The notes beneath the pieces were generated by a model. That model had not been told where the DNA came from. It did not search any database and saw only the letters and a program-made list of their open reading frames with translations. From a virus: DNA of 64,000 nt. The position numbers were made by a program, and so were the translations under genes. Below, in pieces: positions 35,024-63,720 of this stretch (position 1 is the first letter of the stretch; each line of letters starts with the position of its first letter). The DNA lies in IMG/VR virus record IMGVR_UViG_3300031992_000005, positions 289,026 through 353,025 of that record. One strand, written 5' to 3'.

Positions 35024-38000
35024 ATGGCAGAGGATACAAAATTACAAGGAACGAACATTGCCTCAAGAATTGTACCATTCGATTCTCAGGATACCTTTCC
35101 TACCCACGAAGCCTTCTATGGTAGAGGTGGTTATAGAACAGTAGAGGACATTGCAAGCCGAGATGCCATTCCAGAACAACGACTGGAAGAGGGTATGCTT
35201 GTGTACTGTAAAAATGACCCTACTGGCGTTCATACTTATAGATATATGGGTATGAAAGAAGGAACTAATACACGTATTTGGAAAGAATTGAAGCTAGAGG
35301 GAACTGGAGTGCCTATCTATACTAATGCCAACGTCGAGGAGATGAGAGAAGCTGGTGTTAACGTAGATGAAATGGATTACATAACTATTCCAGACGACGA
35401 TGATATTGAGGGTGAGGTAACAAATAAAACTTATGAAACCACACAAAATGGTACTTATGTTGACATTCTATTCAAGGCACTTAGAGCATTACAATCCGAG
35501 GTTGCAAAACTTAAAAACTCGTTCCTTTATGGTATTGAGTCTTATAGCGGAACTGATACAGCAATGGCGGCTATAAGTGAAGAACTTGAAGAAGCCATAG
35601 CAGAAGAACCTCTTTGGGCAGTAGAAGAAGATGGACTTAGCAGCGTGTATGATTTGTTTGAAGCAGCCCCAGAAGCAATTCCAGCTGAATTTGAAGCAAG
35701 AGAGTCTAGTACTGTAGTTGCAACAGAAGATCATACCGGCGGACGATACTACGTTACAATCGACAGCCCTATAAATATTCCAGTCACATGGAATGCGATC
35801 GAAAGAAGTGAGATAGGTAAAATAACCGATAGTAAACTATTTCTCTATCTAACTACTACTGGAGAGAATAATGCGGGGCTAAAATACGTTGTACATATTC
35901 AAGAGGACAGATTAGATGGAACCTCTAGAGAAATAGACTTCGACCTAAGACCATTAATAACTAGTGGTAGTATTACATCTAGTAGTAAGGTATACAATAC
36001 TTTAATTGTTATCAGTAGAAAACAAAAAGTAGCTACTTCTGCCAAAACAGATGAGGAGGGAAATATTTTACCACCTACTACCGAATATTATGGAAGTAAT
36101 TTCATTTGGATAAGTGTATCAGACCCAGTTACAAATTCAACCATAAAGGAGGGATATTGGAAAGATAATACCATTTACGATGATCTTACCCAAGTCGATG
36201 AAGATACAGTATTTTACGATGGCATCCTTTCCTTAAGATCCGTTGATTTTTATAGTACTGTAATCTCTAAATTTCACCTCTACTCCAAGTATCAAGATTT
36301 CACTAAAGGCGTAATACCTAGTAAACCATCAGATGATACTTGGAAATTTAAAGCTGCCCATATTACTATTAGGTCAGTTGATACTTTTGAAACATTAAAA
36401 GAGCTCAAAGATAAATTATTAAATAATGAATTAATATTAGTAGAGAGCTCATATACATTATATATAAAAATAGATAATAAACTTGTTGCTATCGGCAGTC
36501 AATCTTCTCCAGGTGGAGGAGGGTCTAGCGAAGACGGAGGTAGTAGCGAAGATGAAGATACTGGTATGACAAAAACAGAAATTATTCAATGGCTAAGTGA
36601 AAACGGAATAGTCGTTACAGAAAATGGAGGAGATCTTGTTCTTAATGATGTTGCGGACATAACATTTAAGCATGAGGGTACTGGGAAAACCTTCAAATTT
36701 ACCGTTAATGAAAACGGTGAACTTGAAAGTCAGGAAATCCCCGATAAAACAATAAGCGAAGATTTAAAAGATTATACTCTCAAGGGAGACATGAATCTTC
36801 GAGGTTTTATTGCACAATATAGACTAAGAAGTAATGTCAATCAGACAGGTAATGCTAAACTAAAGAGTGATAGATTAAAAATTGGTTCATTCTATGCACC
36901 TCTTAGTGGAGATGTTGTTCATGGATGTACTCACTCATTTATTGAGTTAGAAAATACTTCGGATATAGATATTCCATTGAAAGGAATTTATCTACATGTA
37001 ACTAAACCCGCGATTAATTCCTCAGGTGACGTAGTCCAAAACATATATAGTCTAGAATTAACAGGTATTATTCCATCTGGAGGAACTTATTTAATAAGAG
37101 GCGCAAGACATGCAGAAGATGATGATGCTAATGCTTTTATAAAAGTAAAAACTTACGATCAAGAGTGGTATGTAGACAGCCCTACTGATAGTGATAAGAA
37201 AGAATTACTTTCTCTAGAGATATTAGAAGATATTAATTACGGAGCTTCAGGAAATCCATATGGTCACGGTATTTGTCTAACTTATGGAAACTCTGGTTTT
37301 ACTGGAGGAGATGGTGATAAAGTAGGACCTAGAACACAATTAGTTCGCGGAACTATAGCAAACGAAAAGTTTGACAGTGTTACAATCATTGAATCCGGTG
37401 CATTGAAAAACAAAGAGGACTACCCTTATTGCTATCATAAAAACTTCATAGATGGTATATGTTACTATTTTGCAGTAAAATCAGGTAACTCTCCATATTG
37501 GGCAACTAATGCTATCGGTAAAAATGACGACAAGAGGACAATGTCTAATGTTATGTATAGAAATATGTTCGAACTTGATCCAGCTAATCAAGCCTATCAA
37601 GCATTGAATTCAAAAGATAGTTCAAGAAGAAGATGGGATAAGAACGGAACCGATGTTCAATTACTGGACTTATCTAAAGAATATATTTCTTTCCCAAAAA
37701 CAGAAGACATCTACCCTTTATCTAAGTTTACTCCAAAAGCTTCTTGGGAACATCGCAATGTATGTACAGATAAATCTAAGCTTGATCCTAACAAACCAAA
37801 TATGGTAACTTGCTCCTTTGGTATTAATATCTATACCACTAGATGCTTTAACTGGATCTCCTTAGGATATTTTGATGAATACATTTGGATAAAGAAAACG
37901 AAGGTTGGAAATAATTCTGTTAATGAGTCATGGAAAAGATTTGAATCTTACAAGGAAATAAGTGAGGAAACAGCTAACGCCAGCACTTATCCACGTAGAA

Positions 38001-39970
38001 AGGAATTTAACGTGACTGTAAACAATGCTATATATGCCAGAATAACTGGAAGATTTCCTGCTGACAATAGTTTCTATACCGCACATAAGGTTATCATTGA
38101 TATTACAGAAAATCCAGTTAGTACCAACCCAGAGGAGTATACCTATATAGTAGGTAGAGCAGATAAGAACGGTAACCCTGATCCAGAACATACTTCTAGA
38201 GAACAAACCTTTACTTTATACCCAACTAGTTATACAACCAAGATCTATCAGATTACTGACCAACAGGGATTTCACTGGATAGAGTATCAAGTCTGGGCAG
38301 CAGCTGCAGATAAGCTCAATGAAGTAATAGCAAGCGAAGTAGCAAGTTCCAATATAATACCTATTCTTGTTAATACTGGTGATATGACTCAGAATGGTAC
38401 TCGTATTAACGAATGGTTCGATTATTATCAGGCTGGTAGAAATCTATTCGATCACCTAGAACAAATGAACTGTGTGGGTAATAATGACTTATGTAACACT
38501 GATATAAATGCGCTAGGTACTGGAGATGATGAAGGTAAATCTAACTCCTACTATTTTCATGTATTCTATTGCTATGAAGTAGATGTTACTAATAATATTC
38601 CCGTTCCACTATGTTCAGGTAGGAATGATGAATTCGATCCTAAATATATACCATCCCTATATTACTTTGATTCAACTACTGATAGATTTTTAGTTATAAA
38701 TAGTGAACTTACATCAGCCACTTCAAAGAACTGGTTTAAATTGATTCCTGACAATAATAGTAATACTAAATACATCAATATTTATACAGGTTGGGAATTT
38801 GATACTAGTAATCCAGTAGTTCAGCATTACTATGGAGATGATTTTGTCCCTGTGTATAAAATAGTCTGGAATATATTAAATGATGCAAGAACTAAAGGAA
38901 AAAAGACTATAGCAATCTGTCATGAAATGCCATTTACAGTTATTACCCATGCATCACTTGCCACAGGATCTGGTAATGAATTAGTAGATAGATCAATTAG
39001 CTCTTCTAAACTTGTAGGCAGTCACTTAAACCAGATACATGCAAAAGAGTTAAGTAGCTCAGAGGGTAATGGTTATACAATGAAGGGTACTTACTGGTTC
39101 AGTAGACTATTAGAATACTTTGACGTTAAATTAGTTATAGGTGGTCATAAGCATACATATGCATGTACTTATCCTATTAGAGAAAACTATAATTACCTAG
39201 TAGATGGTAATATGGTAAATAGTTTAACCAATAAGATGGTAATGACGGAAGATACTCTAAAAGAGGATCCAATGATCGTATTCGATGGCCAAACATCATC
39301 AAGTATAAAAAGAAATTTAACTAGATTCCCATATATAAAGAAAGATGATTTCGTAAGTCCTACGAATGATTCTAATCACTTCTTCCCTTCTACTAATCTA
39401 TACTCAGTAGGCGGAGGAGTAGCTTATGTAGAGGACCTTAACGTAAATTCAAATAATTTTGTTGGAGGAAATTTCTATAAGATAGTTCAGGGTCAATTCG
39501 TTGCAGCAGACACCTTTACGCAGGGTACAACTTATTACAAAAAGTTGACTGATTTTGATACTTTTGATGGTATTGTATATTTCATGTGTCAAGCTACTGG
39601 ATATAAACTAAAGTCTAATAAAGAATTGCCATCAATTTTCCAAACCTTCTCAAAAATAATTCCAAAGACAGATAATGCAGCTGGAGGAGATTCACCTAAT
39701 AATAATCAATTACGTCCAATGTTTGCTAAGATAACGGTACAAAATGGTTCTTACAGTATAACCCTTTGTAGACTAGAAAACATTATGACTGAAAGAGAAG
39801 ATCAAGGTTATAAATTTACTCAGACTGCATATGGAAAATCAGCTATCAAAATTAGTAATCTAGTAGTTAATTCTACAAATAATTATGGAGATTGGATAGA
39901 CGAAGACAATACTGATTATTCTACTCCAGAAAGTAGAGTTCTATTTAATAATAGTTATTTTACTGATTAA
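35024..39970 (+). CDS. Giant (1648 aa) fibre-like protein with lamin-tail-like and metallophosphoesterase-like domains
   Basis: Has an N-terminal module plus a short coiled coil (ALRALQSEVAKLKNSF), a Gly/Ser/acidic linker (PGGGGSSEDGGSSEDEDTG) and the two domains listed separately. Confidence 0.6.
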   Translation: MAEDTKLQGTNIASRIVPFDSQDTFPTHEAFYGRGGYRTVEDIASRDAIPEQRLEEGMLVYCKNDPTGVHTYRYMGMKEGTNTRIWKELKLEGTGVPIYTNANVEEMREAGVNVDEMDYITIPDDDDIEGEVTNKTYETTQNGTYVDILFKALRALQSEVAKLKNSFLYGIESYSGTDTAMAAISEELEEAIAEEPLWAVEEDGLSSVYDLFEAAPEAIPAEFEARESSTVVATEDHTGGRYYVTIDSPINIPVTWNAIERSEIGKITDSKLFLYLTTTGENNAGLKYVVHIQEDRLDGTSREIDFDLRPLITSGSITSSSKVYNTLIVISRKQKVATSAKTDEEGNILPPTTEYYGSNFIWISVSDPVTNSTIKEGYWKDNTIYDDLTQVDEDTVFYDGILSLRSVDFYSTVISKFHLYSKYQDFTKGVIPSKPSDDTWKFKAAHITIRSVDTFETLKELKDKLLNNELILVESSYTLYIKIDNKLVAIGSQSSPGGGGSSEDGGSSEDEDTGMTKTEIIQWLSENGIVVTENGGDLVLNDVADITFKHEGTGKTFKFTVNENGELESQEIPDKTISEDLKDYTLKGDMNLRGFIAQYRLRSNVNQTGNAKLKSDRLKIGSFYAPLSGDVVHGCTHSFIELENTSDIDIPLKGIYLHVTKPAINSSGDVVQNIYSLELTGIIPSGGTYLIRGARHAEDDDANAFIKVKTYDQEWYVDSPTDSDKKELLSLEILEDINYGASGNPYGHGICLTYGNSGFTGGDGDKVGPRTQLVRGTIANEKFDSVTIIESGALKNKEDYPYCYHKNFIDGICYYFAVKSGNSPYWATNAIGKNDDKRTMSNVMYRNMFELDPANQAYQALNSKDSSRRRWDKNGTDVQLLDLSKEYISFPKTEDIYPLSKFTPKASWEHRNVCTDKSKLDPNKPNMVTCSFGINIYTTRCFNWISLGYFDEYIWIKKTKVGNNSVNESWKRFESYKEISEETANASTYPRRKEFNVTVNNAIYARITGRFPADNSFYTAHKVIIDITENPVSTNPEEYTYIVGRADKNGNPDPEHTSREQTFTLYPTSYTTKIYQITDQQGFHWIEYQVWAAAADKLNEVIASEVASSNIIPILVNTGDMTQNGTRINEWFDYYQAGRNLFDHLEQMNCVGNNDLCNTDINALGTGDDEGKSNSYYFHVFYCYEVDVTNNIPVPLCSGRNDEFDPKYIPSLYYFDSTTDRFLVINSELTSATSKNWFKLIPDNNSNTKYINIYTGWEFDTSNPVVQHYYGDDFVPVYKIVWNILNDARTKGKKTIAICHEMPFTVITHASLATGSGNELVDRSISSSKLVGSHLNQIHAKELSSSEGNGYTMKGTYWFSRLLEYFDVKLVIGGHKHTYACTYPIRENYNYLVDGNMVNSLTNKMVMTEDTLKEDPMIVFDGQTSSSIKRNLTRFPYIKKDDFVSPTNDSNHFFPSTNLYSVGGGVAYVEDLNVNSNNFVGGNFYKIVQGQFVAADTFTQGTTYYKKLTDFDTFDGIVYFMCQATGYKLKSNKELPSIFQTFSKIIPKTDNAAGGDSPNNNQLRPMFAKITVQNGSYSITLCRLENIMTEREDQGYKFTQTAYGKSAIKISNLVVNSTNNYGDWIDEDNTDYSTPESRVLFNNSYFTD
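36856..37115 (+). other. Lamin-tail-domain (LTD)-like segment (approximate bounds)
   Basis: LKIGSFYAP...HSFIELENTSDIDIPLKGIYLHV...YSLELTGIIPSGGTYLIRGA fits the LTD pattern (xFVELxNxxxxxVDLxGWxL ... IxPGGYxVI). Confidence 0.45.
38236..39180 (+). other. Calcineurin-like metallophosphoesterase domain with GNND in place of GNH(D/E) (approximate bounds)
   Basis: Ordered motifs: ITDQQG, NTGDMTQNG (GDxxxxG), VGNNDL (the GNHD/E position with His replaced by Asn), ICHEMPF, IGGHKHTY (GHxH). Confidence 0.6.
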
Positions 39971-39975
39971 ATTTT

Positions 39976-42900
39976 ATGAAAAGACCTAATAAAAATAGTG
40001 CCACAAATGGTAATATCGTTTTCGACGACGATATTACCATGACTGGTACGAATAAAGCGTTTGGGAAAGATCTCCATAGCGCGATGGAGAACCTTTGGTC
40101 AAGAACAGCTAAATTAGAAAATTACCTAAAATGGATCTATAAATACGGCGGCGTAGGTGGAACCGGCGGTGGAGGAGAGACTGCTACATCATATACAGTC
40201 TATGCAGAACTTAATCATAGGAAAGTTGTAGAAGATCCTACTGCATTTATCAACCTAGGTTCATCAGGTACTTTTCCACTTTTAATAAAAATTTCAAAAC
40301 CAGGTGGAGCATCTTATAAAGTAAACTGTACTTTTACAGATAATACTGGATCTATTATAAACACTATTAATGAAACATTAAACCTGGATAATAGTTATAC
40401 GTTAGAAAGAGTTGTAAATATTTCTAAAAATGGTGTACTAAATATAAAAGTTACTGATAGTATCTATAATGAAACTACACCACTCTCCACTAGATATATT
40501 ACTGACCCATACAGATTTACGGGAGATTTAATAAATAATAGTGGTCGTGCATACTCAAATGAAATTTTTACGTCAGATATATTATCCAATGGACTATATC
40601 TAAGACTAAATTACCAGATATCAGTAGCGACTGAAGTATCCTATAAATTAAAAGTAACAACTCCTAAGTTAACTTTTAATAGCGAAGGCTTCACTGCGAT
40701 GGAAGACTTAATAGTATCCAATACAGAGGAGGGTGATTATATAATTGATATTATACAGTTTCTGAGAAAATTTGATTACGGCCTTACCGAGTCTAACTCA
40801 GGTAATTATAGTATTTCTGTCGAACTTCAAACAAAGATAGTTGGAGATCTAGAAACAAATTCTTATACTCCACTAAAGACGCCAATCTCTTTTACTATCG
40901 TTCCAAAAACACTATACCTACTAGTACAGTCTACTTCAGGTACACTATATCAAGTAGAACAAGAACCTGACTCAGTATCTACTGACGATCTATTCTCACC
41001 TGGTAGTATAACTTTTAAAGTTAAACCTTATTTTGAAAACGTTATAGGAAAAAGCTGTACTATCGACTATAAATTAGGAGATGAATTCGAATGGCAAACT
41101 ATTTCAACTAACCTAAGAGATACCCAACAAATAACTATATATTCTACCAGACCTGGAGAGAATAGTATATCATTTGTTCTGAAATACGATAATAAAAAAT
41201 ATCCTACCCAAGAGCAATCCAATGTTGGTGAAGGTACCTACTATTTTTATATAAAAAATTCTACCTTTGACGGAGGCTGGTGGCATCAATTTGAGAAAAA
41301 TACAGATAGACCTTTCTACGATGACCTAAACCATTACTTCAAAGTAACAGAGTGGTCACCAGAATTTAACCCGTTTAATGCTACGTTCGGTAGAAATCCA
41401 ATAAAACAAACAGTAAATAAATCTCCTGTAACTTTAACGAATTTAACCTGTCCTACTGGATCTGACGGTTTTAATACGATAGTTAATATTGGTATTGAGT
41501 ATAATACTATAAATGAAGATGGTGCACCAATACTAAAAATAACTGCATATGACGATACTGAATTAACACTTTATCAAAACAGAATTACCCTTGGGGCAAA
41601 TTCCATTGAAGACGATAGATTATTCATTCCAAAAACAGACTACAGCTCTTTTACTGGATTAAATAATACAGAGGACTATCACTTAATTTCTATTGTAAGT
41701 AGGCAAGTAAAGAAGTTAGGAAATACTGATAATCGTGGTAGAGAAGTAATTATTTACATAGATGGAGTCATTGAGGCTTGTTTTAAAACATTCCTTTATA
41801 GTCCAGGAACCCCATCAAATAACTTAACCGTAAAGGATATAAGTCTATATAGCGTCAACGCAAATTTCAACTTATTTGATATAGCATACTTCAGTCCAAT
41901 CGAGTCTAAGGTAAGTACGGAATATTATATTCCAGAAGATGTTACAATTTATCAATATTACTTGAAATATAAGGAAACACTCTTAAGCAAAACACTTACT
42001 GAAGAGGAAATTAACTTGCTGACTTACTACGACAATATTGATTTTAATCCAGAAAACGGAGACATTTTCTGTTCTGAGGATGCTATGAATAATATAGCGA
42101 GAAACCTCAATGTCCCTGTAATGGCTATTCTAGTAGATGATAATAAAAACGGTAATTATAAAGATTTATTAGGTGGCTATTATCTAGAGTCGAGTACAGA
42201 AGAACTTGAAACAAAAGCTACTTTAAAGTGGAGTGGATTAAAGGGAAAAACTTCGTTAACTGATATAAGCTTTCCAAATAGAACCATAAGTAACACAGGT
42301 AGTTATATAGACTGGACAAGTAATATCCATTTTTATGTAAAAATACAGGGTTCATCTACAAAGGGATATCATATTAAGAATTACACGCTTACCTTAAAAG
42401 ATGATGAAAACCTATATATTCCGTTGTTTTCACCAAACTTTAAAAATAACGACACAACTACATTTCTCCCTGAACACTCATTTACTCTAAAAGCCGACGT
42501 AGTAGATTCCAGTCACTCTAATAATACTTCTATTGGAAATTTTGTTAATGACATCACTACTAAATTCAAAACAAGCCCTACTTCAGTGGATGATGCCTTC
42601 TCTGGATACATAAAAAACTGTTTGACAGGTTTTCCTTTTCTAATTTTCATGAAATTCATCGACCCAAACAAGTCGCCTGATGCTCAAGATGAAAATTACT
42701 ACTATCATGGAGTATATAATTTTAACTTAGGTAGAGAATCCGAGTATAACCTGGGCTATAAAGATTACAATGTCTTCTGTGATAGTAACGGAAAAAGTAT
42801 ACTAGAAGATGCACCAGATTCTGGTGGATTTTCATTTCACATGGTCACTAAGTCCAGTAGTGTTGTAAAAAATGGAGTAATTACTGCAGAAATTCAAGGA

Positions 42901-45900
42901 AACAGCTCATTTCTAGACTTTTCACAATTTGATGAATCATTATTGTTCCAGAATGACAGTGTCTCTGACGAAAACGTAACTACCATGTTCGGTAAAATTA
43001 CAGATGAAAATCCGGACGTATCCTATATCAGAGGAGAAAACCTACAAAATCAAGATGCAAGAAATATCTTACAAAGATTTGTAGAAAAAGTAACCTATGC
43101 GGGTGGTTATGTCTTCACTCAGCTAAAGAAAACCTTTAGTGACGATGGGAGTGCAGGAGTCTTATATGGTTACGGATCTAAGCCCCCACAAGGTTATAAA
43201 GCAGTTGGTAAGATAAAAGTTTGGAATGAAGATTTAGGTGAAATAGAAGAAAAAACCCTTCCATTAAACCAAGTCCCTAACTATCGACACCAATTTATTA
43301 GAACAGTCAGTGGAATTACGCCAAAAGCTGGTTTAACCAGACCAGGTACACTAAATGACCTCATGGATTTGGTTAGAAAAGACGAAAATGATCCTGATGC
43401 TGGAATTCCTTTACTAGACTTTGACAGCGTAAGTGAATATTATACTATCTGTATGGCATTTGGTTTGATAGACTCTGTCCAAAAGAATCTTACATTAAAA
43501 ACATGGACCGCAGATAAGGAGAGCGGACTTGGTACTTTTTATGTAGCATTCTACGACATGGATACTTGCTTAGGAATTGATAATGCTGGAAAGAAAGTGA
43601 ACTACACTGCATTCTCTGATTATTGGACAAAGAATGAATCAGAATCAGATGGAACAAGTACTAGTGAAACAACCTCAAGTGGAACCGTAAGTTATAAAAC
43701 AATTACACCAATTTCAGCTACAGTCTACAGAGACTATTCCCCTTCTGGAGGAGAATACTTCGACGTTGCTAGTTCCTACCTATTTGCGATACCTAAATAC
43801 GCAACTTATATTGCAGGAAAACTTAATCTTAATGCAAGCGATAGTGCGTTTACAGAAAAAATTACAAACTGGCCAAGGCAACTCTGGGAAAAGTGGAGAT
43901 CGAGAAGAAATCCGTCGGATCATAAAATAGGTTGTCTAGAATCCGCTGACTATTTTATAAAGACTTATTTCTCTAATAACTTAGGATCAGTTGGCATTCC
44001 ATTGATTAATGCAAATTACAGAGCAAAATATTTAGTTCAATTGTACTATTCAGGTGATACTACAAATTCTAAAGATGAACTTGGTAAGTTTAATGGAACA
44101 CGCATCGCTAGAGTAAAAGAGTGGTTAAATAATCGTCTTCACCTCCTAGATGCATATTTTAACATAGCAAGAGGTGTAAATAATCCTATAATGTTCTATA
44201 GAGAATGTAATGAGGAAATAGATGGAGAAATGCAGACATTCTATAAGTATACTTCTACGGAAGAAGATACTAGCGCAGACCATTATATGTCAGAACCTAC
44301 TATTTCAGAATACACGTCCGCTACTAACCCAGATGTTTATATAAACTCGGATATTTTTGATAAGCTTTCTCTACAATCAAGTATACCTTTTGTCGTTACT
44401 GTACGTGCTAAAGAAAACTCACCTCTTATTATAACATGTGCAAACTGGACGAAGAGATATCTTATTGGTGGTAATAATTATTATCAAATCCCAGTCCCTG
44501 TATCAGGAACCCAGGCATATAGATTATTAGGTTCAAAAAACTGGACCTATATGGACAGTATTAATGGATTTCACTTAGATGGTACATTTTATATAAACAC
44601 TCAATATATAGATCAACTTGTGGGAGATGATAATTCATCAGAGGCGAAAGAACTGACCTTTGATAATAGCGCTACCGATAATATCCTTATGCCTTCATTG
44701 AAGACAATCAGTTTAACTAGTCCTAAATATAAAGGTACACTTAAATTAGTTGGTACAAACTATACTAACTTAGGTACAATTGATTTAAGTAATTCTAGAA
44801 TAGGTTTAAACATGCAAAACACTACTTGTACGGAACTTAATCTATCTAACGTAAATGGGTCAAATAATCAGTATAATATAGTGGATTGTCTAAATCTTTC
44901 AAAAATTACAATCGTGAGTGCCTATATGTCCTCGCTAATAATAAAGCCTATCCATCCAGATATTATTACTAAAAACTGTGAAACAAGCTTTGGTAAGGTA
45001 ACTAGTAGTAATGTAATTAACCTAGCAAATATTACACCTACTACTTCCAATAATCAAAACACTCCTTTTGGAAAAACAGGCTCTGGATTTTATCTAAAAA
45101 ATACTCATATTCGTGAAATAAATATATCGAATACTAAAATTAATGAAGATAGATCCAGAATAGAGATTGATGGAGACGACACCTTGTATAGCATAACGAT
45201 TGCAGGATTTTCGGTGGTTGTGATAAAGAATTGTCAGAATCTTAATAAGATAAACATATCCGACCCTGAAGCAGGTATTGGTGGCGATAAGCTGAGAAGA
45301 CTATGTATTCAAAATTGTGGTAATGCTGGTACAGACTTAACTATAAATTCTACAGAAAGAGGACATCTGAATTTAACGGATTTCTCTGACCTAAACTTTG
45401 TGAATTTTAGAGAATGTACCAACATAACTAGCATTGAGTTTAGCAATACAGGGGTTTATCTGGACTATGACGCTTTCTATTCCGACAGTAATCTAAGTAC
45501 CATTGATGGAAAAGCCTATATAATAGGTACTACTACCACTGGAACAAGGATCAGACCTACCTTCTATCTTTGTAAAAACTTTAAACTAACGAAAAGTAAT
45601 GGAACTACTTGCTGTGATTTATTTGTCATAGAACAAGCAGTATCTCTTAATAGTACATTCTCTATTGGAAATAGTATTTCAAAAGAAGGCGAAGGAAAAA
45701 TAACACGAACTTTGGCTAAAACATTTATAGAAAGAATCCCAACAAATAACAACATTACCGATATAACCAACATGTTTTGTGGAAATAGAATTGAGTATAA
45801 TGAAACACTATTAGTTAGTGACATAAAATCTACGAAAAACTACATAGACATGTCGGTTTTTAAGAAAGTAACAAACGTAAGTGGGGCTTTTAACTATAAT

Positions 45901-48627
45901 TTGATTAGTGCTTGGCATCCTAAATGGTTCTCATTCGGAGCAGACGTCGATACCATTAATTCCTTTGAAAACTACATGGGTAGAGAGACTTCTACTACAG
46001 TTACCACAGTAATGAATGTTTTCTATGATATTATAGAAAAAATTAGAACAATAGGAGCAAATAACGCCAATACCTCTGGATACCAGTATGTTAGATTAAA
46101 GATAATCTCGGATAATAAAAGCAATCCTACAGTCATAGACCATTTTAAAGCATCTGACTTCTTCTTCCCAAGTAAAGAAGAAACAACACGTTACCCTACT
46201 AAGGTAGAGACCCTACAGCTCATTAGTTTTAGTGGTGATGCTATAGTAGATTTTAGTGGTTTGTTTAGTTACGGACATTGGAATAGTCTAAATACGATCT
46301 ATAGATTTGAATTTGAAACTACCAATACAAGCGGAAATAGTATTAGAGTAAATAATATTATGGGCTTAGACGGTCTATTCAATCTTGGATATCTTGAAGT
46401 AACCTTGCCTCCTTTAGAAGGAGGTATTTTGGACTCTTTTAGAGTAGATTTCGATTCTCCGTTAACAATTACCAGTAGATTGGATGGTTTAACTTATACA
46501 GGACAAACTTTTATTGATCTATATGGTTTTGTAGCTTGGGAAAATTACAGAGGCAAGACTGTAGATTTCTTTAGAAGAGAATATACTTCAAGTGGATACT
46601 CAGATTGGGATGAGGGTAACTTCACAATAAGAAAGTACATATCCTACGATAACTTTAAAAGTCTGTGTGGAATACTATTTAACAGTAATTGTAATTGGAC
46701 CGGATTTAGTAACCTATTTAGAAATTGTACAGTCGTGGCTAGTCCAGATCAGCACGTTGTTATAGAACTTACTGATAAAGATACTAGTGAAGATGATAGT
46801 TTAAGCATGACGGGGGTTAAGTCAATTAATTCAATGTTTGATAATTTCCGTATCATCAGAAAACAACCTGGCTACACTATTACAAAGGAAGATTTAGTTG
46901 ATAGCAATTATTTAGAAAGTGAATACGTAGAATTTAACTATGATAGACTATTAGGTATCTTTCCAAGCCTGACAAGTGCTGCTTTTGCGTTTAGAAACGT
47001 GAAATTTAAAAGAGCATTGCCAATTGATTTTTGGAGGAAAAGGAAAAAAACAACTGAAGACGTTTATATAAAAATAGATGATAGTGGGTTGGATATATAT
47101 CAAAGTCCTGATGAAAACTATTTTAATAATGAAGTTTTAGGAAGATATTTTAAAAAAGCCACGCTATACACGTATAGTTATAACCTAGATTTAGAAAACC
47201 TACAGAGCTGTTTTTATAATACTAAGTGGTTTTATGGAATAGAAAATGGAGAGACTATTCAGGCTAAAAACTTTAATCCAGAACAACTAAGTGATGTTCC
47301 TAAAAACTCAATAGTTATTGATTCTACTGGAGAAGTTATAGATGAGGTTGGCTACTACTATTATAAGTTGGCAAGTGGAAGTAACAATGCCGAAATTGGC
47401 GGCACTATTACAAAAATCTATTATTGGACACTTACAAAGCAAGTAAATGGTCTGGAATCATCTACGGAATTCTCTGACATAGCAGAATTAACTCCAGAAT
47501 CTAATCCTGAGGGTATAGGAGAATATGTAGAAGAGTGTACAATAAACGGATCGGGAGACACTATTAAGAACTACTCAGTATCAAATACTGCTAACGCCAT
47601 TAGTAGATCCTTCATTGCACCAGATATCCTTTATCCAATAAAACCTAACTGTTCACTTAGAAACACGTTCTATTCAGATGGTTCAGATTCAATGGAGGGA
47701 TTGATTCCTAAAAATCTATTAAAAAATTCAACTTCACCTAATATTAACGGATTATTGACTAACCAATCCATTATTCCTAGGAAAATAGGCGTTCTTGAAC
47801 AGACTGACTCGTCAAATCCTCCTAAAGTGGAAAGAGTTAGCTATTATACATTCGTTCCCGAGAACTTTACTCGAATAACATCATTAGAGGGCGCATTTAA
47901 GTTTAAAATACTATTACCTAATAGTAGCACAGAAAGTGGTGATACTATTTCATACAGTAAATACTACATATTGCTGAATACTTCTTTTAAGAATAATAGG
48001 TCAAGTATTACAGCTTTCAGAAATCCTTTCCCAGAATACTGCATAGATGGTGACAATACAACGGTGGGACTCTGGAGAACTAGTACGAATGGATGGTATA
48101 ACACTGCGAATACTTCATATGATAAAGTCCTCTACTACGGTTTAATGTATAACCCAGAATACGATACTAATGGTGTTTTGGTAGGAGGTTCGGAAGGTAT
48201 TGATATTTCAACCAGTGGATTTAGAAATGCAACCTTCGACAATATGTTAACAGCTGGAGGAACGAGTAATAAAGGTAAAGGTACTGTAATAATGAGATAC
48301 TTAACAGGTTATTTATTTAGTTATAATACAACACTAAACCAAATCAAGAGAGCTGCAACCAGTTCTTCTAGTTCGACTCTTAATCCTATATTTGGTACTT
48401 TCTATCATTATCAGTATCAAAATTGTGAAAACTTTACTAACAAAGCACTAATTCTTCCAGGAATAACGGGACAGCCAGGAGCATTTAATAATAGTAACTT
48501 TATAGCATTCAGTTATGACTTTTTAGTACATAAATCACAATTACCTCAAGGAAATAAGAATAATTATGACGAGTTTATAAAAAGTTCTGACCCTAATGCA
48601 AAAGTCGTACTATATCCTCGAGATTAA
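39976..48627 (+). CDS. Giant (2883 aa) fibre-like protein with CotH-kinase-like region and leucine-rich repeats
   Basis: N-terminal coiled coil (MENLWSRTAKLENYLKWIY) then a poly-Gly linker (GGVGGTGGGGE). Domains are listed separately. Confidence 0.6.
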   Translation: MKRPNKNSATNGNIVFDDDITMTGTNKAFGKDLHSAMENLWSRTAKLENYLKWIYKYGGVGGTGGGGETATSYTVYAELNHRKVVEDPTAFINLGSSGTFPLLIKISKPGGASYKVNCTFTDNTGSIINTINETLNLDNSYTLERVVNISKNGVLNIKVTDSIYNETTPLSTRYITDPYRFTGDLINNSGRAYSNEIFTSDILSNGLYLRLNYQISVATEVSYKLKVTTPKLTFNSEGFTAMEDLIVSNTEEGDYIIDIIQFLRKFDYGLTESNSGNYSISVELQTKIVGDLETNSYTPLKTPISFTIVPKTLYLLVQSTSGTLYQVEQEPDSVSTDDLFSPGSITFKVKPYFENVIGKSCTIDYKLGDEFEWQTISTNLRDTQQITIYSTRPGENSISFVLKYDNKKYPTQEQSNVGEGTYYFYIKNSTFDGGWWHQFEKNTDRPFYDDLNHYFKVTEWSPEFNPFNATFGRNPIKQTVNKSPVTLTNLTCPTGSDGFNTIVNIGIEYNTINEDGAPILKITAYDDTELTLYQNRITLGANSIEDDRLFIPKTDYSSFTGLNNTEDYHLISIVSRQVKKLGNTDNRGREVIIYIDGVIEACFKTFLYSPGTPSNNLTVKDISLYSVNANFNLFDIAYFSPIESKVSTEYYIPEDVTIYQYYLKYKETLLSKTLTEEEINLLTYYDNIDFNPENGDIFCSEDAMNNIARNLNVPVMAILVDDNKNGNYKDLLGGYYLESSTEELETKATLKWSGLKGKTSLTDISFPNRTISNTGSYIDWTSNIHFYVKIQGSSTKGYHIKNYTLTLKDDENLYIPLFSPNFKNNDTTTFLPEHSFTLKADVVDSSHSNNTSIGNFVNDITTKFKTSPTSVDDAFSGYIKNCLTGFPFLIFMKFIDPNKSPDAQDENYYYHGVYNFNLGRESEYNLGYKDYNVFCDSNGKSILEDAPDSGGFSFHMVTKSSSVVKNGVITAEIQGNSSFLDFSQFDESLLFQNDSVSDENVTTMFGKITDENPDVSYIRGENLQNQDARNILQRFVEKVTYAGGYVFTQLKKTFSDDGSAGVLYGYGSKPPQGYKAVGKIKVWNEDLGEIEEKTLPLNQVPNYRHQFIRTVSGITPKAGLTRPGTLNDLMDLVRKDENDPDAGIPLLDFDSVSEYYTICMAFGLIDSVQKNLTLKTWTADKESGLGTFYVAFYDMDTCLGIDNAGKKVNYTAFSDYWTKNESESDGTSTSETTSSGTVSYKTITPISATVYRDYSPSGGEYFDVASSYLFAIPKYATYIAGKLNLNASDSAFTEKITNWPRQLWEKWRSRRNPSDHKIGCLESADYFIKTYFSNNLGSVGIPLINANYRAKYLVQLYYSGDTTNSKDELGKFNGTRIARVKEWLNNRLHLLDAYFNIARGVNNPIMFYRECNEEIDGEMQTFYKYTSTEEDTSADHYMSEPTISEYTSATNPDVYINSDIFDKLSLQSSIPFVVTVRAKENSPLIITCANWTKRYLIGGNNYYQIPVPVSGTQAYRLLGSKNWTYMDSINGFHLDGTFYINTQYIDQLVGDDNSSEAKELTFDNSATDNILMPSLKTISLTSPKYKGTLKLVGTNYTNLGTIDLSNSRIGLNMQNTTCTELNLSNVNGSNNQYNIVDCLNLSKITIVSAYMSSLIIKPIHPDIITKNCETSFGKVTSSNVINLANITPTTSNNQNTPFGKTGSGFYLKNTHIREINISNTKINEDRSRIEIDGDDTLYSITIAGFSVVVIKNCQNLNKINISDPEAGIGGDKLRRLCIQNCGNAGTDLTINSTERGHLNLTDFSDLNFVNFRECTNITSIEFSNTGVYLDYDAFYSDSNLSTIDGKAYIIGTTTTGTRIRPTFYLCKNFKLTKSNGTTCCDLFVIEQAVSLNSTFSIGNSISKEGEGKITRTLAKTFIERIPTNNNITDITNMFCGNRIEYNETLLVSDIKSTKNYIDMSVFKKVTNVSGAFNYNLISAWHPKWFSFGADVDTINSFENYMGRETSTTVTTVMNVFYDIIEKIRTIGANNANTSGYQYVRLKIISDNKSNPTVIDHFKASDFFFPSKEETTRYPTKVETLQLISFSGDAIVDFSGLFSYGHWNSLNTIYRFEFETTNTSGNSIRVNNIMGLDGLFNLGYLEVTLPPLEGGILDSFRVDFDSPLTITSRLDGLTYTGQTFIDLYGFVAWENYRGKTVDFFRREYTSSGYSDWDEGNFTIRKYISYDNFKSLCGILFNSNCNWTGFSNLFRNCTVVASPDQHVVIELTDKDTSEDDSLSMTGVKSINSMFDNFRIIRKQPGYTITKEDLVDSNYLESEYVEFNYDRLLGIFPSLTSAAFAFRNVKFKRALPIDFWRKRKKTTEDVYIKIDDSGLDIYQSPDENYFNNEVLGRYFKKATLYTYSYNLDLENLQSCFYNTKWFYGIENGETIQAKNFNPEQLSDVPKNSIVIDSTGEVIDEVGYYYYKLASGSNNAEIGGTITKIYYWTLTKQVNGLESSTEFSDIAELTPESNPEGIGEYVEECTINGSGDTIKNYSVSNTANAISRSFIAPDILYPIKPNCSLRNTFYSDGSDSMEGLIPKNLLKNSTSPNINGLLTNQSIIPRKIGVLEQTDSSNPPKVERVSYYTFVPENFTRITSLEGAFKFKILLPNSSTESGDTISYSKYYILLNTSFKNNRSSITAFRNPFPEYCIDGDNTTVGLWRTSTNGWYNTANTSYDKVLYYGLMYNPEYDTNGVLVGGSEGIDISTSGFRNATFDNMLTAGGTSNKGKGTVIMRYLTGYLFSYNTTLNQIKRAATSSSSSTLNPIFGTFYHYQYQNCENFTNKALILPGITGQPGAFNNSNFIAFSYDFLVHKSQLPQGNKNNYDEFIKSSDPNAKVVLYPRD
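42108..44160 (+). other. CotH-like (atypical kinase fold) region (approximate bounds)
   Basis: Ordered matches to CotH landmarks as I recall them: YVKIQGSSTKGYHIKNYTLTLKDDE (R-G-N-S-S ... K-K-S-Y-k-l), FTLKADVVDSSHSNNTSIGNFV, FPFLIFMKF...YYHGVYNFNLGRE (v-N-G-x-Y-x-G-l-Y), GTFYVAFYDMDTCLG (y-x-W-D-x-D-x-x-f-G). Confidence 0.5.
44698..45535 (+). other. Leucine-rich-repeat region (BspA-like, approximate bounds)
   Basis: Successive ~22-25-aa units ending in L/I-x-L/I-x-x-N/C. Examples: LKTISLTSPKY, LGTIDLSNSRI, CTELNLSNVNG, LSKITIVSAYM, IREINISNTKI, LNKINISDPEA, LRRLCIQNCGN, HLNLTDFSDLNFVNFRECTNITSIEFSN. Confidence 0.55.
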
Positions 48628-49741: not shown

Positions 49742-50335
49742 ATGTTAGTAATTTTAGATCCAGCGCACGGAAGCAATGTATCTGGTAAATGTAGTCCAGA
49801 TAAGAAATTAAGAGAATATCTTTGGTCCAGAGAAATGCTGGGGAGAATAGAGAAGAGATTAAAAGCTGTTGGAATTGATTCTGTCTGGGATTGGACAGGA
49901 ACAACTGAACCTGGCCTGACAAAGAGATGTACCTTAGCTAATGCTATCGCTAAGAATCACTCGGGTAAATCAATCTTTATCTCTTTTCACGTTAATGCAG
50001 CAGGAAGTGATGGAAAATGGCATACAGGCAAAGGATGGGAAATTTATGTTTCCAATAATGCCAGCTCATCTTCCAAAAAGCTTGCTTCATATATAGCAAA
50101 TGCTGCCAAAGCAACAGGTCTTAAGATAAGAACAGAAGATCCTGGCCGCTTATATAAAGTTGCTAGGTTTACTGTTCTGCAGAAAACTTCCATGCCAGCT
50201 GTTTTGGTTGAAAACTTATTCCAGGATAATAAGGAAGAAGTTGATTACCTATTAAGTGAAAAAGGAAAAAATACTCTAACAGAAATTGTAATTAAAGGAG
50301 TATGTGATTACTTTGGAGTAGAATATCATGAGTAA
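49742..50335 (+). CDS. N-acetylmuramoyl-L-alanine amidase (Amidase_3 family) lysin
   Basis: VILDPAHG (Zn ligand His), SFHVNAAGS (second His), PAVLVENLFQDNKEEVDYL (Glu ligand plus the conserved tail). 197 aa, the size of a single catalytic domain. Confidence 0.85.
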   Translation: MLVILDPAHGSNVSGKCSPDKKLREYLWSREMLGRIEKRLKAVGIDSVWDWTGTTEPGLTKRCTLANAIAKNHSGKSIFISFHVNAAGSDGKWHTGKGWEIYVSNNASSSSKKLASYIANAAKATGLKIRTEDPGRLYKVARFTVLQKTSMPAVLVENLFQDNKEEVDYLLSEKGKNTLTEIVIKGVCDYFGVEYHE

Positions 50336-51257
50336 AACAATACAAGTTATAAGTCAAGGAGGAGTAGATATTTTTCCTGCTACGGTAGTTGATGGAGTTG
50401 GATTTGAGCCCGCTAGATGTTCATTATCCAAACTCCTCGACACCTATAATGTTTCAACTCTTTGGCCATTGGAGGAAGGTTATTATACAATAGGAACCGC
50501 AGTAACAGTTCTAGAGGATAACCTAGAATCTTCTCAAAAGATTCCTGGAACTAAAGTGGGATTCCTAAACTCTAATGGCTCTTATGAAGAGTGGGAATAT
50601 TTCGGCGGCAACTTTGCATTTACAAATACTAGTGGATGGAAACGAGTAGATTCTATGGTACTACAGGATCTCCTAGATACCGTGTATCCCTTAGAATCTA
50701 CTATATCAGCATCAATTGACCTCGTTGGAGTAGGGGAATCTTTACAAGGAAGACTCTCTTGGTCTGTTAGTAGAGGAGGAGCTGATGTAAGTGGAGCCGC
50801 AGTGAAGAAATTAAATGGTGCCGTAGTAGATGAAACAGATGGAAAAAATTTAACACTCTTCTCTAATACTAATAAGACTGATGCATATACATTTTCTGCC
50901 ACATATCAGGGAGTTGAAAGTACTAGTACAGTAGAAATAGCTTATGTACACAAAAGCTACGTAGGTTTAATTAATGCAGATATTGAAGAGCCTACCGAAA
51001 ACCAAGTAACAGGACTAGACAGCTATACTATAAAAGAAACAAACTTCTCAAGAACATTCCCTAACCTAAATTATCAGAAAGTATGTGCAGCATTTCCCGC
51101 ATACCTAGGAGATGTAGAGTCTATAAAAGATGCCAATGGATTTGAGTACATTGACTCCTATACTAAAACAACTCTAGACATAGGCGGAATAACTTATAAT
51201 GTCTATGTCCTAACTAATGCAACGACAATTACAAACTTTACACAAGTATGGCTCTAA
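50328..51257 (+). CDS. Fibre-like protein with C-terminal module shared with 33341..35020
   Basis: 309 aa. See the alignment given for 33341..35020. Overlaps the amidase stop by 8 nt. Confidence 0.5.
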   Translation: MSKTIQVISQGGVDIFPATVVDGVGFEPARCSLSKLLDTYNVSTLWPLEEGYYTIGTAVTVLEDNLESSQKIPGTKVGFLNSNGSYEEWEYFGGNFAFTNTSGWKRVDSMVLQDLLDTVYPLESTISASIDLVGVGESLQGRLSWSVSRGGADVSGAAVKKLNGAVVDETDGKNLTLFSNTNKTDAYTFSATYQGVESTSTVEIAYVHKSYVGLINADIEEPTENQVTGLDSYTIKETNFSRTFPNLNYQKVCAAFPAYLGDVESIKDANGFEYIDSYTKTTLDIGGITYNVYVLTNATTITNFTQVWL

Positions 51258-52588
51258 AAATAGGTGATAATATAAGTTATCAAGGTAAACAACCCAATTT
51301 TTCCAGGGATACATTTACAGAGCTTCAAGAAATGGTAAGATTTCCTGAAACCTCCCTAGATGAAGGCCATATTTCTTTGTGCCTAGAAACTGGAAAACGT
51401 TATATCTTCTATTCCACGAATACGATAGATCCTGTTCTTGGAAGATGGAGATTAGTTGTTGACACTGCATTGGACGCCACCTCTGAAAATCCTGTACAAA
51501 ATAAAGTTATATATCAAAAATTTCAAGACCTAGAAACAAATACCAGCGATTCTCATACTGAGCTAGAGCAAAGGGTTATTGATAATGAATTAGTAAACTC
51601 TGCCAGCTTAAATGACCTAAATGATAGGCTGAATGATACCGAAGAAGTCTTAACTACTGCAATAAATGAAATTAAGTCGGACTTAGATACAGAATATACG
51701 ATAAACGGTCATCCCCTGAATGAAAAATCTATAAATCTTACTGCAGAAGATATAGGACTTGGTAATTATGCTGACTATACAAATCCCCTTGACTTACCTA
51801 TTTCGAGAGCTACACAAGAGGCTCTTACTACAAAAGTTGATAAGGTAGAAGGAAGTAGATTAATTACAGAAACAGAAGCTACTCAACTTGCTAATCACCT
51901 AGAAGATAATAATAACCCTCACCAAGTTACAAAAAGTCAACTAGGTCTTGGCAGCTATCCAGAGAATCCACTAGACCTTCCTATCTCAACTGCTACACAA
52001 AATGCTCTTAATGATAAACTTCCTAAGACTGCAAAAGTAAATGGTCACACTTTCTCCACCGATTCAATACCAGAGATTACACTAAGTAAAGCTGATGTTG
52101 GCCTAGGTAGTGTTAATAATACCGCAGACCTAAATAAACCAGTGTCACTTGATACTCTGGCTGCTCTTGATAAAAAAGTTGATAAGGTAGAAGGTAGTAG
52201 ATTATTAACCAGTGAAGAAGCTGAAATAATTGCTGGAATAGAAGATAACGAAAAAGTTACTGCTGCAGCATTAATCGACTTAGAAAATAGGAAAGTTGAT
52301 AAGGTAGATGGAGGTAGATTAATCAATGAAGAAGAAATAGCTAAGATAGCAGGTTTAGCTAAGAAAGAGAAAGTAATTGCTGCCGCTTTGGTTGACCTAG
52401 AAGAGAAAAAAGTCGATAAAGTTGAGGGAAGTAGACTTATTAATGAAGACGAAATAGAAGAAATCGCCGGAATTAAGGATACTGAAAAAGTTGTAGCAAA
52501 TGCAATCCTAGACCTTAATGAAAGACTAGTTGCTCAGGAAAGAATTCTACCCATTACACACGAAATGATAGATTATATGATGCTATGA
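51248..52588 (+). CDS. Tail fibre protein with phage tail-fibre repeats
   Basis: Repeated GLGxxxNxxDLxKPxSxxTxxAL motifs (LGNYADYTNPLDLPISRATQEAL; LGSYPENPLDLPISTATQNAL; GLGSVNNTADLNKPVSLDTLAAL) plus 39-aa tandem repeats. Confidence 0.7.
   Translation: MALKIGDNISYQGKQPNFSRDTFTELQEMVRFPETSLDEGHISLCLETGKRYIFYSTNTIDPVLGRWRLVVDTALDATSENPVQNKVIYQKFQDLETNTSDSHTELEQRVIDNELVNSASLNDLNDRLNDTEEVLTTAINEIKSDLDTEYTINGHPLNEKSINLTAEDIGLGNYADYTNPLDLPISRATQEALTTKVDKVEGSRLITETEATQLANHLEDNNNPHQVTKSQLGLGSYPENPLDLPISTATQNALNDKLPKTAKVNGHTFSTDSIPEITLSKADVGLGSVNNTADLNKPVSLDTLAALDKKVDKVEGSRLLTSEEAEIIAGIEDNEKVTAAALIDLENRKVDKVDGGRLINEEEIAKIAGLAKKEKVIAAALVDLEEKKVDKVEGSRLINEDEIEEIAGIKDTEKVVANAILDLNERLVAQERILPITHEMIDYMML
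52172..52522 (+). repeat. Three tandem 117-nt (39-aa) coding repeats in the fibre gene
   Basis: The GTTGATAAGGTAGA-type unit starts at 52178, 52295 and 52412 (spacing 117 nt). An isolated copy lies at 51836. The peptide unit is KVDKVEGSRL(I/L)xxEEx(E/A)xIAGxxxxEKVxAAALxDLExx. Confidence 0.85.
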
Positions 52589-56095: not shown

Positions 56096-56133
56096 TTAAT
56101 TCCTTACGTGTGTATTATAAAATTTCAAGAAAC

Positions 56134-56865: not shown

Positions 56866-57106
56866 AGGATGTGTATGTTGGGGTAGGTATGTAGATGATA
56901 AATCCCTCGAAGAATTATCAGAAGAAGAGAAAAATAATTTACTTCAAGTCTTAAAAGATCAATTAACTTTAAGCGACTTAAATGAAGTATTTGACTTAAT
57001 CTTAGATAATCATTATACAGATTACGAATCCGACGACAAACCATGTGAATGCTGCGGAGATTACGTATGCACATGGAAACTTGAAATAAAAAACCTAGGG
57101 AATTAA
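56846..57106 (+). CDS. Small acidic Cys-containing protein
   Basis: 86 aa. Has N-terminal GCVCWG and C-terminal KPCECCGDYVC, a possible metal-binding knuckle. Overlaps the phosphatase gene end by 20 nt. Confidence 0.4.
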   Translation: MLLEKTEGCVCWGRYVDDKSLEELSEEEKNNLLQVLKDQLTLSDLNEVFDLILDNHYTDYESDDKPCECCGDYVCTWKLEIKNLGN

Positions 57107-57124
57107 TCCCTAGGTAATTTTTTT
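57094..57124. terminator. Bidirectional terminator between convergent genes
   Basis: CCTAGGGA (57094-57101) pairs with TCCCTAGG (57107-57114), with a 5-nt loop. A-run upstream (ATAAAAAA) and T-run downstream (TAATTTTTTT). Sits at the stops of 56846..57106 (+) and 57103..57786 (-). Confidence 0.6.
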
Positions 57125-63566: not shown

Positions 63567-63720
63567 TTTATGCAAAAAATCGCGGCTGTCGGTGTGGCAT
63601 GAATAATGGCCCCTTCGGGGATAAAACTGAAGATATTATATATAATAATATTAAGATAAATGCATTCCATAGGGATCTCTCCTTTCAGTCAAGATCCACT
63701 CCAGCTAAAGCTGGGAACTT

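Follow-up and report, generated by a model that had tools for sequence, protein, structure and literature searches.

CotH of Bacillus spores is a kinase that phosphorylates the coat proteins CotB and CotG and whose activity shapes the assembly of the coat; the substitutions D228Q and D251A abolish the activity of the B. subtilis enzyme (PMC7821199). CotH-family kinase domains have also been found in phage genomes, where they were described as "currently unstudied" (Benler 2021, PMC8008677), and phage-associated proteins of more than 2,000 amino acids that combine CotH active-site motifs (PDB 5JDA), carbohydrate-binding or Laminin_G_3 domains, and leucine-rich repeats (LRRs) have been reported as targets of diversity-generating retroelements (DGRs; Wu 2018, PMC5758913, category f1; bioRxiv 10.1101/2024.11.15.621889, domain group 3). 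In RefSeq, gp22 of the crAss-like phage cr7_1 appears as "spore coat protein-like protein" with the note "Similar to spore coat protein/internalin/CotH kinase" and is immediately preceded by "phosphatase" genes, and gp20 of crAss002 carries the label "transferase/internalin-J, leucine rich repeat". Here, we describe a protein of this kind that is encoded in a 64,000-nucleotide stretch of viral DNA (IMG/VR record IMGVR_UViG_3300031992_000005, positions 289,026 to 353,025; hereafter the window), together with the phosphoesterase-like gene that precedes it. The first-pass annotation of the window had recognized a CotH-like region in this protein and had taken a CotH module on a phage fibre to be undescribed; this latter view has to be given up, since RefSeq, BFVD and the DGR papers already report such proteins.

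The gene encodes 2,883 amino acids, starts with ATG, ends with TAA and is free of internal stop codons. An identical product (P0046) is present on five public contigs, two of which are 0.2-1 Mb in size. The gene and its central domain are positioned as follows:

39976..48627, plus strand: complete open reading frame (ORF) for a giant multidomain distal-tail protein of the fibre or receptor-binding type

42079..44178, plus strand: CotH-type atypical kinase-fold domain (residues 702-1401), from the family profile and from an AlphaFold model compared with Foldseek

Residues 702-1401 very probably constitute a divergent CotH-fold domain within this tail protein. We assign the domain to CotH because three relatives that are recognized by Pfam CotH connect to its family and because a structural search retrieves CotH structures. 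With the trimmed family profile A2, we recovered the proteins P0043 (E 2e-30) and P0045 (E 2.5e-13), which score 34.0 bits (residues 689-944) and 45.1 bits, respectively, against Pfam CotH (PF08757; gathering cut-off 23.8 bits), both over the region matched by the family; hhalign paired A2 with P0043 at 99.7% probability over 688-947. The third relative is gp353 of Bacillus phage G, on which the hidden Markov model (HMM) of 147 family members reaches 149.7 bits, distributed over three collinear blocks. This protein reaches 60.3 bits on Pfam CotH (E 3e-16, residues 640-977), and the blocks found by the family HMM lie within or slightly past that region. An AlphaFold2 model of residues 702-1401 (predicted local distance difference test score [pLDDT] 61, predicted template modelling [TM] score 0.72) was compared with the PDB by Foldseek. 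The only significant matches were the B. cereus CotH kinase structures 5JD9 (E 1.3e-5) and 5JDA (E 1.9e-5), with a probability of 1.00 and a target-normalised TM score of 0.61, while the next match had an E-value of 1.0. Matches in BFVD comprised the "Spore coat protein-like protein" of cr124_1 (E 8e-43), Gp353 of phage G, and proteins entered there as "Spore coat protein H kinase fold" or "CotH kinase protein".

Several results weigh against this assignment. Pfam CotH matched neither the whole protein nor an 810-amino-acid segment, either lobe or an insert-deleted construct, even at E-values of up to 10, and direct scans with Pfam and PHROG, of the full-length protein as well as of segments, gave no CotH; crAss002 gp20 and DAC16_86 likewise stay under the Pfam cut-off. 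Searches by phmmer and hmmsearch against all PDB chains, with the segment, A1 or P0045 as queries, returned no CotH protein. Alignments of the family by hhalign with the 5JD9 sequence and with a profile of 121 Bacillaceae CotH sequences were non-significant (E 0.65, 0.12, 0.61, and 0.28), and a greedy setting (mact 0.01) misaligned the C-lobe. The structural model, moreover, is only moderately good (pLDDT 61). The hhalign result is a weak control and uninformative on homology, because the Bacillaceae profile also fails on phage G gp353 (-1.8 bits), a protein that is itself Pfam CotH-positive. A profile link to CotH, the lack of which the first-pass annotation would have taken as a refutation, thus exists only indirectly, through P0043, P0045 and gp353; the sequence of the window protein itself never matches Pfam CotH. 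One could argue from the missing direct Pfam and PDB sequence matches, and from the non-significant alignments with Bacillus CotH, that the resemblance of the motifs is a coincidence and that the region is unrelated to CotH. However, the three relatives with strong family scores are all Pfam-positive, Foldseek yields CotH structures alone, and the same annotation was chosen independently by those who deposited crAss-like and other phage genomes. The links through these relatives, together with the Foldseek result, effectively refute a chance resemblance, to which we assign a negligible probability.

Five motifs mark the predicted active site and the surrounding fold:

42343..42390, plus strand: N-lobe motif IQGSSTKGYHIKNYTL (residues 790-805), with Q791, G792, K801 and N802

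42490..42525, plus strand: N-lobe motif LKADVVDSSHSNN, from the conservation alignment, including VVDSSHSNN (residues 842-850, 42499-42525)

42700..42732, plus strand: motif YYHGVYNFNLG (residues 909-919), with G912, Y914, N917 and G919, followed by R920

43462..43488, plus strand: predicted catalytic loop GLIDSVQKN (D1166-x3-K1170-N1171), putative equivalent of FDGFVHN with D228 of B. subtilis CotH

43549..43575, plus strand: predicted metal-binding motif FYDMDTCLG (residues 1192-1200, D1194-x-D1196), putative equivalent of WDYD with D251 of B. subtilis CotH

The conservation of these motifs was counted across 147 aligned family members, one for each cluster at 50% identity. Four of them had been listed in the first-pass annotation; all four are present between 42108 and 44160 in the order that it gave, and they are invariant or nearly so among the 147 homologs. 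Within IQGSSTKGYHIKNYTL, G792 and N802 are found in 147 of 147 sequences and K801 in 146. The lysine that had been singled out there, directly after GSS-x, is not the conserved one: position 796 is variable (L in 37, M in 33, K in 30, and R in 27 sequences), and it is K801 that is retained. In LKADVVDSSHSNN, K839, D841, S845 and N850 are each invariant and D844 occurs in 145 of the 147 sequences; the corresponding counts for the third motif are 147 for G912 and 138 for Y914. The loop with D1166, K1170 and N1171, all three invariant (147/147), is a fifth motif that the earlier list lacked, and Y1193, D1194 and D1196 of the last motif are likewise found in every sequence (G1200 in 136). With D1166 and D1194 present in all 147 homologs, the catalytic and the metal-binding aspartates of CotH are predicted to be retained in the window protein.

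Local alignments place these motifs beside their presumed counterparts. With hhalign, IQGSSTKGYHIKNYTL (QGSST..K801-N802) pairs with RG(A/S)HIR..KKSY of Bacillus CotH, the Gly-rich strand among the nucleotide-binding elements of the N-lobe, at E-values of 0.12-0.6 that are non-significant on their own; either of the conserved lysines K801 and K839 may contact ATP. The LKADVVDSS part of LKADVVDSSHSNN pairs with HLN(S/A)E(F/Y)(M/K)DPSLIRN of the same proteins, and FYDMD with their IPWDYDATWG. YYHGVYNFNLG aligns with NG..(Q/E)GVY in both phage G gp353 and Bacillus CotH. The distance from the catalytic-loop aspartate to the D-x-D motif is most often 22-23 residues in the family; it is 28 in the window protein and 23 in P0043 and P0045. 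The aspartate pair of 5JD9 (FDGFVHN ... WDYD) is also 23 residues apart, which equals the distance from D228 to D251. On the Pfam CotH profile, the YDMD of P0043 and P0045 falls at positions ~208-212 and the WDYD of genuine CotH at ~206-219, the latter estimated from the span of genuine CotH residues 42-350 over profile positions 1-322. A caveat on the assignment is that the phage residues were equated with D228 and D251 from the pattern and spacing of the motifs, from approximate positions on the Pfam profile and from local alignments that are non-significant.

Conservation along the whole protein peaks at residues 801-850 (56% identity) and 1151-1200 (62%), and lies at 10-30% elsewhere. Because the two catalytic segments coincide with these maxima, we read the region as a working active site rather than as a decayed fold, and the domain is likely to be catalytically active. 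It has to be considered, on the other hand, that the CotH fold might be kept as a binding scaffold in a large, non-catalytic receptor-binding fibre. The Mucorales CotH invasins or ligands, which are proposed to bind host GRP78, would be a parallel; the domain is highly divergent from CotH proteins of proven kinase activity and carries a large insert, and binding modules surround it. Nevertheless, the D-x3-K-N loop and the D-x-D motif are invariant in 147 representatives that are less than 50% identical to each other, and they stand at the conservation maxima. Such invariance is what one would expect of an active site rather than of a binding surface that follows changing hosts, and an adhesin of this kind is improbable.

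Directly upstream of the CotH gene lies a second large gene with the same orientation:

35024..39970, plus strand: partner gene for a fibre-like protein of 1,648 amino acids, with a Metallophos domain and a segment resembling a lamin-tail domain (LTD)

38240..39160, plus strand: Metallophos domain of the partner (residues 1073-1379), with the motifs NTGDMTQ, VGNNDL, CHE and GGHKH

36935..37114, plus strand: LTD-like segment of the partner (residues 638-697; Pfam LTD 17.3 bits, E 0.006)

The first-pass annotation had described this neighbour as an LTD/phosphoesterase fibre. The phosphoesterase part is confirmed by a Metallophos match of 23.3 bits (cut-off 21.5), while the LTD match stays below its cut-off (PF00932; 34.3 bits), as do those of crAss002 gp19 (25.5 bits), DAC16_85 (25.6 bits), and phage G gp352 (29.9 bits). 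In these three homologs, the segment recurs upstream of Metallophos at the same relative position, and "LTD-like" appears a reasonable label for it. The GD, GNND, HE and GHxH motifs of the phosphoesterase domain are conserved across five homologs, among them crAss002 gp19, DAC16_85, IAS gp084, and phage G gp352; all five read GNND in place of the GNH(D/E) that is normal for calcineurin-like and purple acid phosphatases. Pur_ac_phosph_N is present in phage G gp352 and in the partner at locus L007. Another Metallophos protein, of 251 amino acids (56110-56865; E 6e-6, above cut-off), is encoded a few kb downstream of the two-gene module.

The first-pass annotation had suggested looking for this gene pair in other phages. 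Of 18 independent loci with enough upstream sequence, 17 have a Metallophos partner immediately before the CotH gene; the exception is L008. By tblastn, partner and CotH gene were found in essentially the same ~36 phage genomes. Carriers include crAss-like phages of several families (cr7_1, cr124_1, cr52_1, cr60_1, cr107_1, cr109_1, cr113_1, crAss002, IAS virus, and a Bohxovirus), the ~170-180-kb B. thetaiotaomicron phages DAC16, 19, 20, 22, 23 and SJC03, all Lak megaphages, and Bacillus phage G. Wherever the annotation was inspected (cr7_1, crAss002 gp19/gp20, IAS virus, DAC16_85/86, phage G gp352/gp353), the two genes are adjacent and co-oriented. The other giant tail proteins of the window have no relatives in the phages that carry the module. 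The CotH/phosphoesterase pair therefore behaves as a mobile module that phages with no other evident kinship have in common.

The CotH domain is one of several parts of the window protein, which is ordered as a Gly-rich N-terminal motif, about 650 amino acids of beta-rich sequence, the CotH domain, BspA-type LRRs and a C-terminal part of ~860 amino acids:

40129..40176, plus strand: N-terminal motif KWIYKYGGVGGTGGGG (residues 52-67), conserved in the full-length alignment A3

41413..42090, plus strand: beta-rich segment (residues 480-705; motifs YQN., YHL and YIDG) preceding the CotH core

42796..43395, plus strand: family-specific insert between the lobes (residues ~941-1140; ~130-200 amino acids), left unaligned with P0043 by hhalign

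44383..46050, plus strand: BspA-type LRR region (residues ~1470-2025), from the full-length family profile A3 against the PDB

46051..48624, plus strand: C-terminal ~860 amino acids, the least conserved part (11-26% identity per window of 50 amino acids)

W53, G58, G59, G61, G64 and G66 of KWIYKYGGVGGTGGGG are invariant or at least 90% conserved in alignment A3, and motifs of this type also stand at the N-termini of the fragments P0003-P0014; the N-terminal 110 amino acids had no match in phage genomes. A role as an attachment or trimerisation element is possible. For the beta-rich segment, relatives offer an analogy: Laminin_G_3 occupies the corresponding place in gp353 (29.9 bits, above cut-off), with matches below the threshold in DAC16_86 (E 1.1e-4), P0011 (E 0.003), and P0045 (E 0.005), and residues 480-705 may be a ConA/Laminin_G_3-like module. 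The segment of the window protein itself has no Pfam match, and its family profile retrieves neither the Laminin_G_3 region of gp353 nor any PDB sequence. The insert between the lobes has no counterpart in Bacillus CotH, and gp353 leaves ~70 amino acids between the blocks at 610-760 and 831-918. Part of the insert is of low confidence in the AlphaFold model, in which pLDDT falls below 50 at core positions 273-324, 355-382 and 391-418.

The BspA-like LRRs that the first-pass annotation had placed at 44698-45535 are borne out, although the region turns out to be wider. Profile A3 matched the PDB entries 4FS7 (E 1.6e-12) and 4GT6 (E 6.9e-9), LGR4/5 and others, and all 60 matches listed are LRR proteins; as a single sequence, the window protein gives a Pfam LRR_5 match of 16 bits only (E 0.012; cut-off 27.7), and crAss002 gp20 has an LRR_4 match above cut-off. 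No Pfam match was obtained for the C-terminal ~860 amino acids, and an AlphaFold2 model of them (pLDDT 58.7) had no significant match in the PDB (best E 0.077); this part is presumed to be the ligand-binding end, and its sequence may hold degenerate repeats of the DUF285/BspA-like type. A megablast search of the ORF against phage genomes gave no match. The family to which the protein belongs comprises 1,619 clusters at 50% identity, and among the best 150 representatives more than 140 are near-full-length proteins of 2,400-3,500 amino acids with the same layout.

How might such a protein be used? In the explanation that we prefer, the LRR and C-terminal modules would hold the fibre on the cell surface, the CotH domain would be an active Mg/Mn-dependent phosphotransferase and no relic, and the kinase-fold domain and the partner phosphoesterase would together carry out phosphoryl transfer during adsorption, with a phosphorylated glycan or protein exposed on the envelope as the substrate. 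A surface role is suggested by the flanking LRRs, by Laminin_G_3 and DGR-diversified C-type lectins in relatives, by the conserved metal-binding motifs of the partner and by the pairing of the two genes. The idea of a host-surface recognition or modification system, raised in the first-pass annotation, is plausible. Summarised across the claims on identity, activity and surface action, we put the probability of this explanation at about 0.45. That the pair acts on the host surface, rather than within the infected cell on proteins of the virion or the host, is a tentative proposal for which we would not claim even odds.

Three considerations speak against surface action. ATP is scarce outside cells, which disfavours an extracellular kinase. 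Furthermore, the pair is found in phages of Bacteroidota (crAss002, DAC16, Lak), in a phage of Bacillus (phage G), and in siphovirus modules that also encode Dit, Tal and Amidase_2; hosts and envelopes as varied as these make a single host-specific envelope substrate unlikely and favour a virion-intrinsic or a universal one. Finally, the presence of the family members in the virion is a prediction from the position of their genes, and we found no proteomic or structural data on any of them.

The first two of these considerations lend some weight to a pair that works during assembly. Here the CotH domain would phosphorylate itself, its fibre partners or other virion or host proteins in the infected cell, and the metallophosphoesterase would reverse or edit these marks. 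The spore provides a precedent in CotH, a coat component and kinase that patterns assembly, and ATP is available within an infected cell. Kinase-fold and phosphatase-like genes adjoin each other in 17 of the 18 loci, and the retention of the module across phages whose hosts have differing envelopes (Bacteroides/Prevotella versus Bacillus) fits a phage-intrinsic or universal substrate. The catalytic segments, furthermore, are the most conserved ones of an otherwise fast-evolving protein. However, no substrate-like Ser-rich repeat proteins were identified, and the enzyme domain is set between ligand-binding modules of the sort that is typical of surface-directed fibres. Enzymes of the purple-acid-phosphatase type and most non-spore members of the CotH family are extracellular, which also counts against an intracellular function. 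We consider action during assembly rather unlikely, though it is the main rival of chemistry on the host surface, the reading that we favour.

The CotH gene sits in the tail module of the phage, between tape-measure-like and lysis genes. On its upstream side, 5871-11465 encodes a tape-measure- or tail-lysin-like protein of 1,864 amino acids with Phage_lysozyme2 (E 2.6e-28) and Peptidase_M23 (E 4.4e-20) domains, a combination typical of phages with Gram-positive hosts. On its downstream side are an Amidase_3 endolysin gene (49742-50335) and a tail-fibre-like ORF (51248-52588) with internal repeats at a spacing of 117 nucleotides (families D3 and D5) and many PHROG "minor tail/tail fiber" matches. 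The structural module also contains a homing-endonuclease-like ORF (14835-15824; phrog_314/7168, E ~1e-19 to 1e-20), and an ORF of 2,389 amino acids just upstream of the two-gene module (25365-32534) has no significant Pfam or PHROG match, and tblastn retrieved nothing for it from 50,697 phage genomes. At two other loci, L007 and L008, distant relatives of the CotH gene follow the genes for the tape-measure protein, Dit and Tal, and the L007 relative also precedes holin and endolysin genes. This spot, after the tape-measure protein, Dit and Tal and before holin and endolysin, is the usual place of receptor-binding proteins. At L007, which is siphovirus-like, a GIY-YIG homing endonuclease gene (10964-11620) splits the giant gene into a CotH ORF (8001-10847) and a DUF285/LRR ORF (11905-15999). 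In a review of the Crassvirales, proteins of this sort are regarded as subunits of tail spikes or fibres, and tail spikes annotated with phosphatase domains are noted (PMC10136315).

The window stems from an uncultivated phage, which is probably a jumbo phage (>200 kb). A crAss-like origin was considered and rejected, as the other tail giants have neither crAss nor Lak relatives. Host assignment from bacterial genomes proved unreliable: the matches lie on contigs of metagenome-assembled genomes (MAGs) that resemble mis-binned phage (Segatella copri, Erysipelotrichaceae, Bacilli, and Clostridium bins). Family members at L012-L014 are located on contigs of 161, 400 and 360 kb in Erysipelotrichaceae/Bacilli MAGs; these contigs may be jumbo phages that were mis-binned as low-GC bacteria. 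Elsewhere in the window, eight consecutive overlapping ORFs of 178-227 amino acids occupy the minus strand at 57103-61895, where the GC skew changes sign; repeat families D2 and D7 reveal at least four of the eight as diverged paralogs (69-79% nucleotide identity, 90-nucleotide block). They are followed by a gene of the IMP dehydrogenase/GMP reductase family (61928-62962; E 5e-42), likely an auxiliary gene of nucleotide metabolism, and by a tandem array with a 77-nucleotide unit (63643-64000; four overlapping copies of 127 nucleotides, three of them 100% identical) that extends past the end of the window. Two adjacent paralogous ORFs at 2477-3463 and 3479-4321 both match phrog_2990 and have in common a 110-nucleotide block that is 91% identical.

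The family sits in phages that rank among the most abundant of the human gut, namely Crassvirales, Lak megaphages and B. thetaiotaomicron phages. An invariant predicted active site, the pairing with a phosphoesterase and the spread across unrelated lineages of phages and different host phyla give a so far vague annotation the form of a hypothesis that can be tested, for which cultured carriers are at hand (crAss002 on B. xylanisolvens, DAC16 on B. thetaiotaomicron, and phage G on B. megaterium). Were the domain active, it would bear on the encounter of gut phages with the phase-variable surfaces of Bacteroides and on the role of secreted bacterial proteins of the CotH family. More broadly, many phage tails might carry an active pair of kinase-fold and phosphatase-like proteins that adds phosphate to, or removes it from, the host surface or their own fibres and thereby controls adsorption; we regard this generalisation as speculative and rather unlikely. 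If it were true, this would be, to our knowledge, the first kinase shown to act in the adsorption apparatus of phages, and one that is widespread in the gut virome.

Among the known systems, the crAss-like phages provide the closest homologs. The proteins of cr7_1 and cr124_1 share ~40% identity with the window protein over the CotH core, and the homologs as a group (cr7_1 gp22, cr124_1, crAss002 gp20, and IAS virus gp083-081) are 2,497-2,622 amino acids long, with the same order of CotH and then LRRs. They share the upstream Metallophos partner as well, which is ~40% identical over 94% of its length. The window phage differs from them in having its own tape-measure-like protein with lysozyme and M23 domains and in other large tail proteins that have no relatives in any known phage. 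It differs, too, in its genetic code: cr7_1 gp22 (L001, 18099-25592) contains 60 in-frame TAG codons and ends with TGA, indicating TAG reassignment, whereas the window is free of recoding. Sixteen large ORFs of the window end with TAA (10) or TGA (6), and none with TAG.

Bacteroides-phage variable proteins of the DGR type end in a C-terminal C-type-lectin variable region that is diversified via a nearby reverse transcriptase and a template repeat. No C-type-lectin match was found at the C-terminus of the window protein, no direct repeat in the 64-kb window involves 46-48.6 kb, and there is no reverse transcriptase among the ORFs scanned, which did not include every small ORF. For the window copy, we therefore rejected the status of a DGR target, there being no pair of template and variable repeats and no reverse transcriptase among the scanned ORFs.

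Phage G, whose host is a Gram-positive soil bacterium, carries the same module. Its gp352 combines Mtd_N, LTD (below cut-off), Pur_ac_phosph_N and Metallophos, as a counterpart of the window partner, and gp353, with Laminin_G_3, CotH and LRR, has the same architecture as the window protein. It is shorter (2,055 amino acids), is missing most of the insert between the lobes, passes Pfam CotH directly, and is unannotated in its record. Bacillus CotH (PF08757; 5JD9, 5JDA) shares with the window domain the fold, the order of the motifs and a D-x4-N followed ~23 residues on by D-x-D. The two are only ~10% identical, the Bacillus domain spans ~310 amino acids as against ~700 with the inserts in the window, and the loop reads DGFVHN in the former and DSxxKN in the latter. 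Bacillus CotH, moreover, is a free 42-kDa coat protein, while the domain predicted here is embedded in a tail protein of 2,883 amino acids.

Depolymerase tailspikes and tail-associated phosphodiesterases resemble the window protein in placing an enzyme domain in a distal tail protein, beside binding modules and between tail-tip and lysis genes. The characterised tail enzymes are hydrolases, lyases and esterases that need no nucleotide cofactor, and we know of no kinase-fold domain that has been characterised in such a role. In the literature, we found no discussion of the pairing of CotH with a purple-acid-phosphatase-like protein or of its spread from Crassvirales and Lak phages to phage G, nor of the size of the family or of the active site as the conservation peak of the protein. 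Proteins of this kind have already been annotated in crAss-like phages, where they are uncharacterised; what the present analysis adds is the pairing of the two genes, the spread of this pair across phages, the size of the family, and the conservation of its predicted active site.

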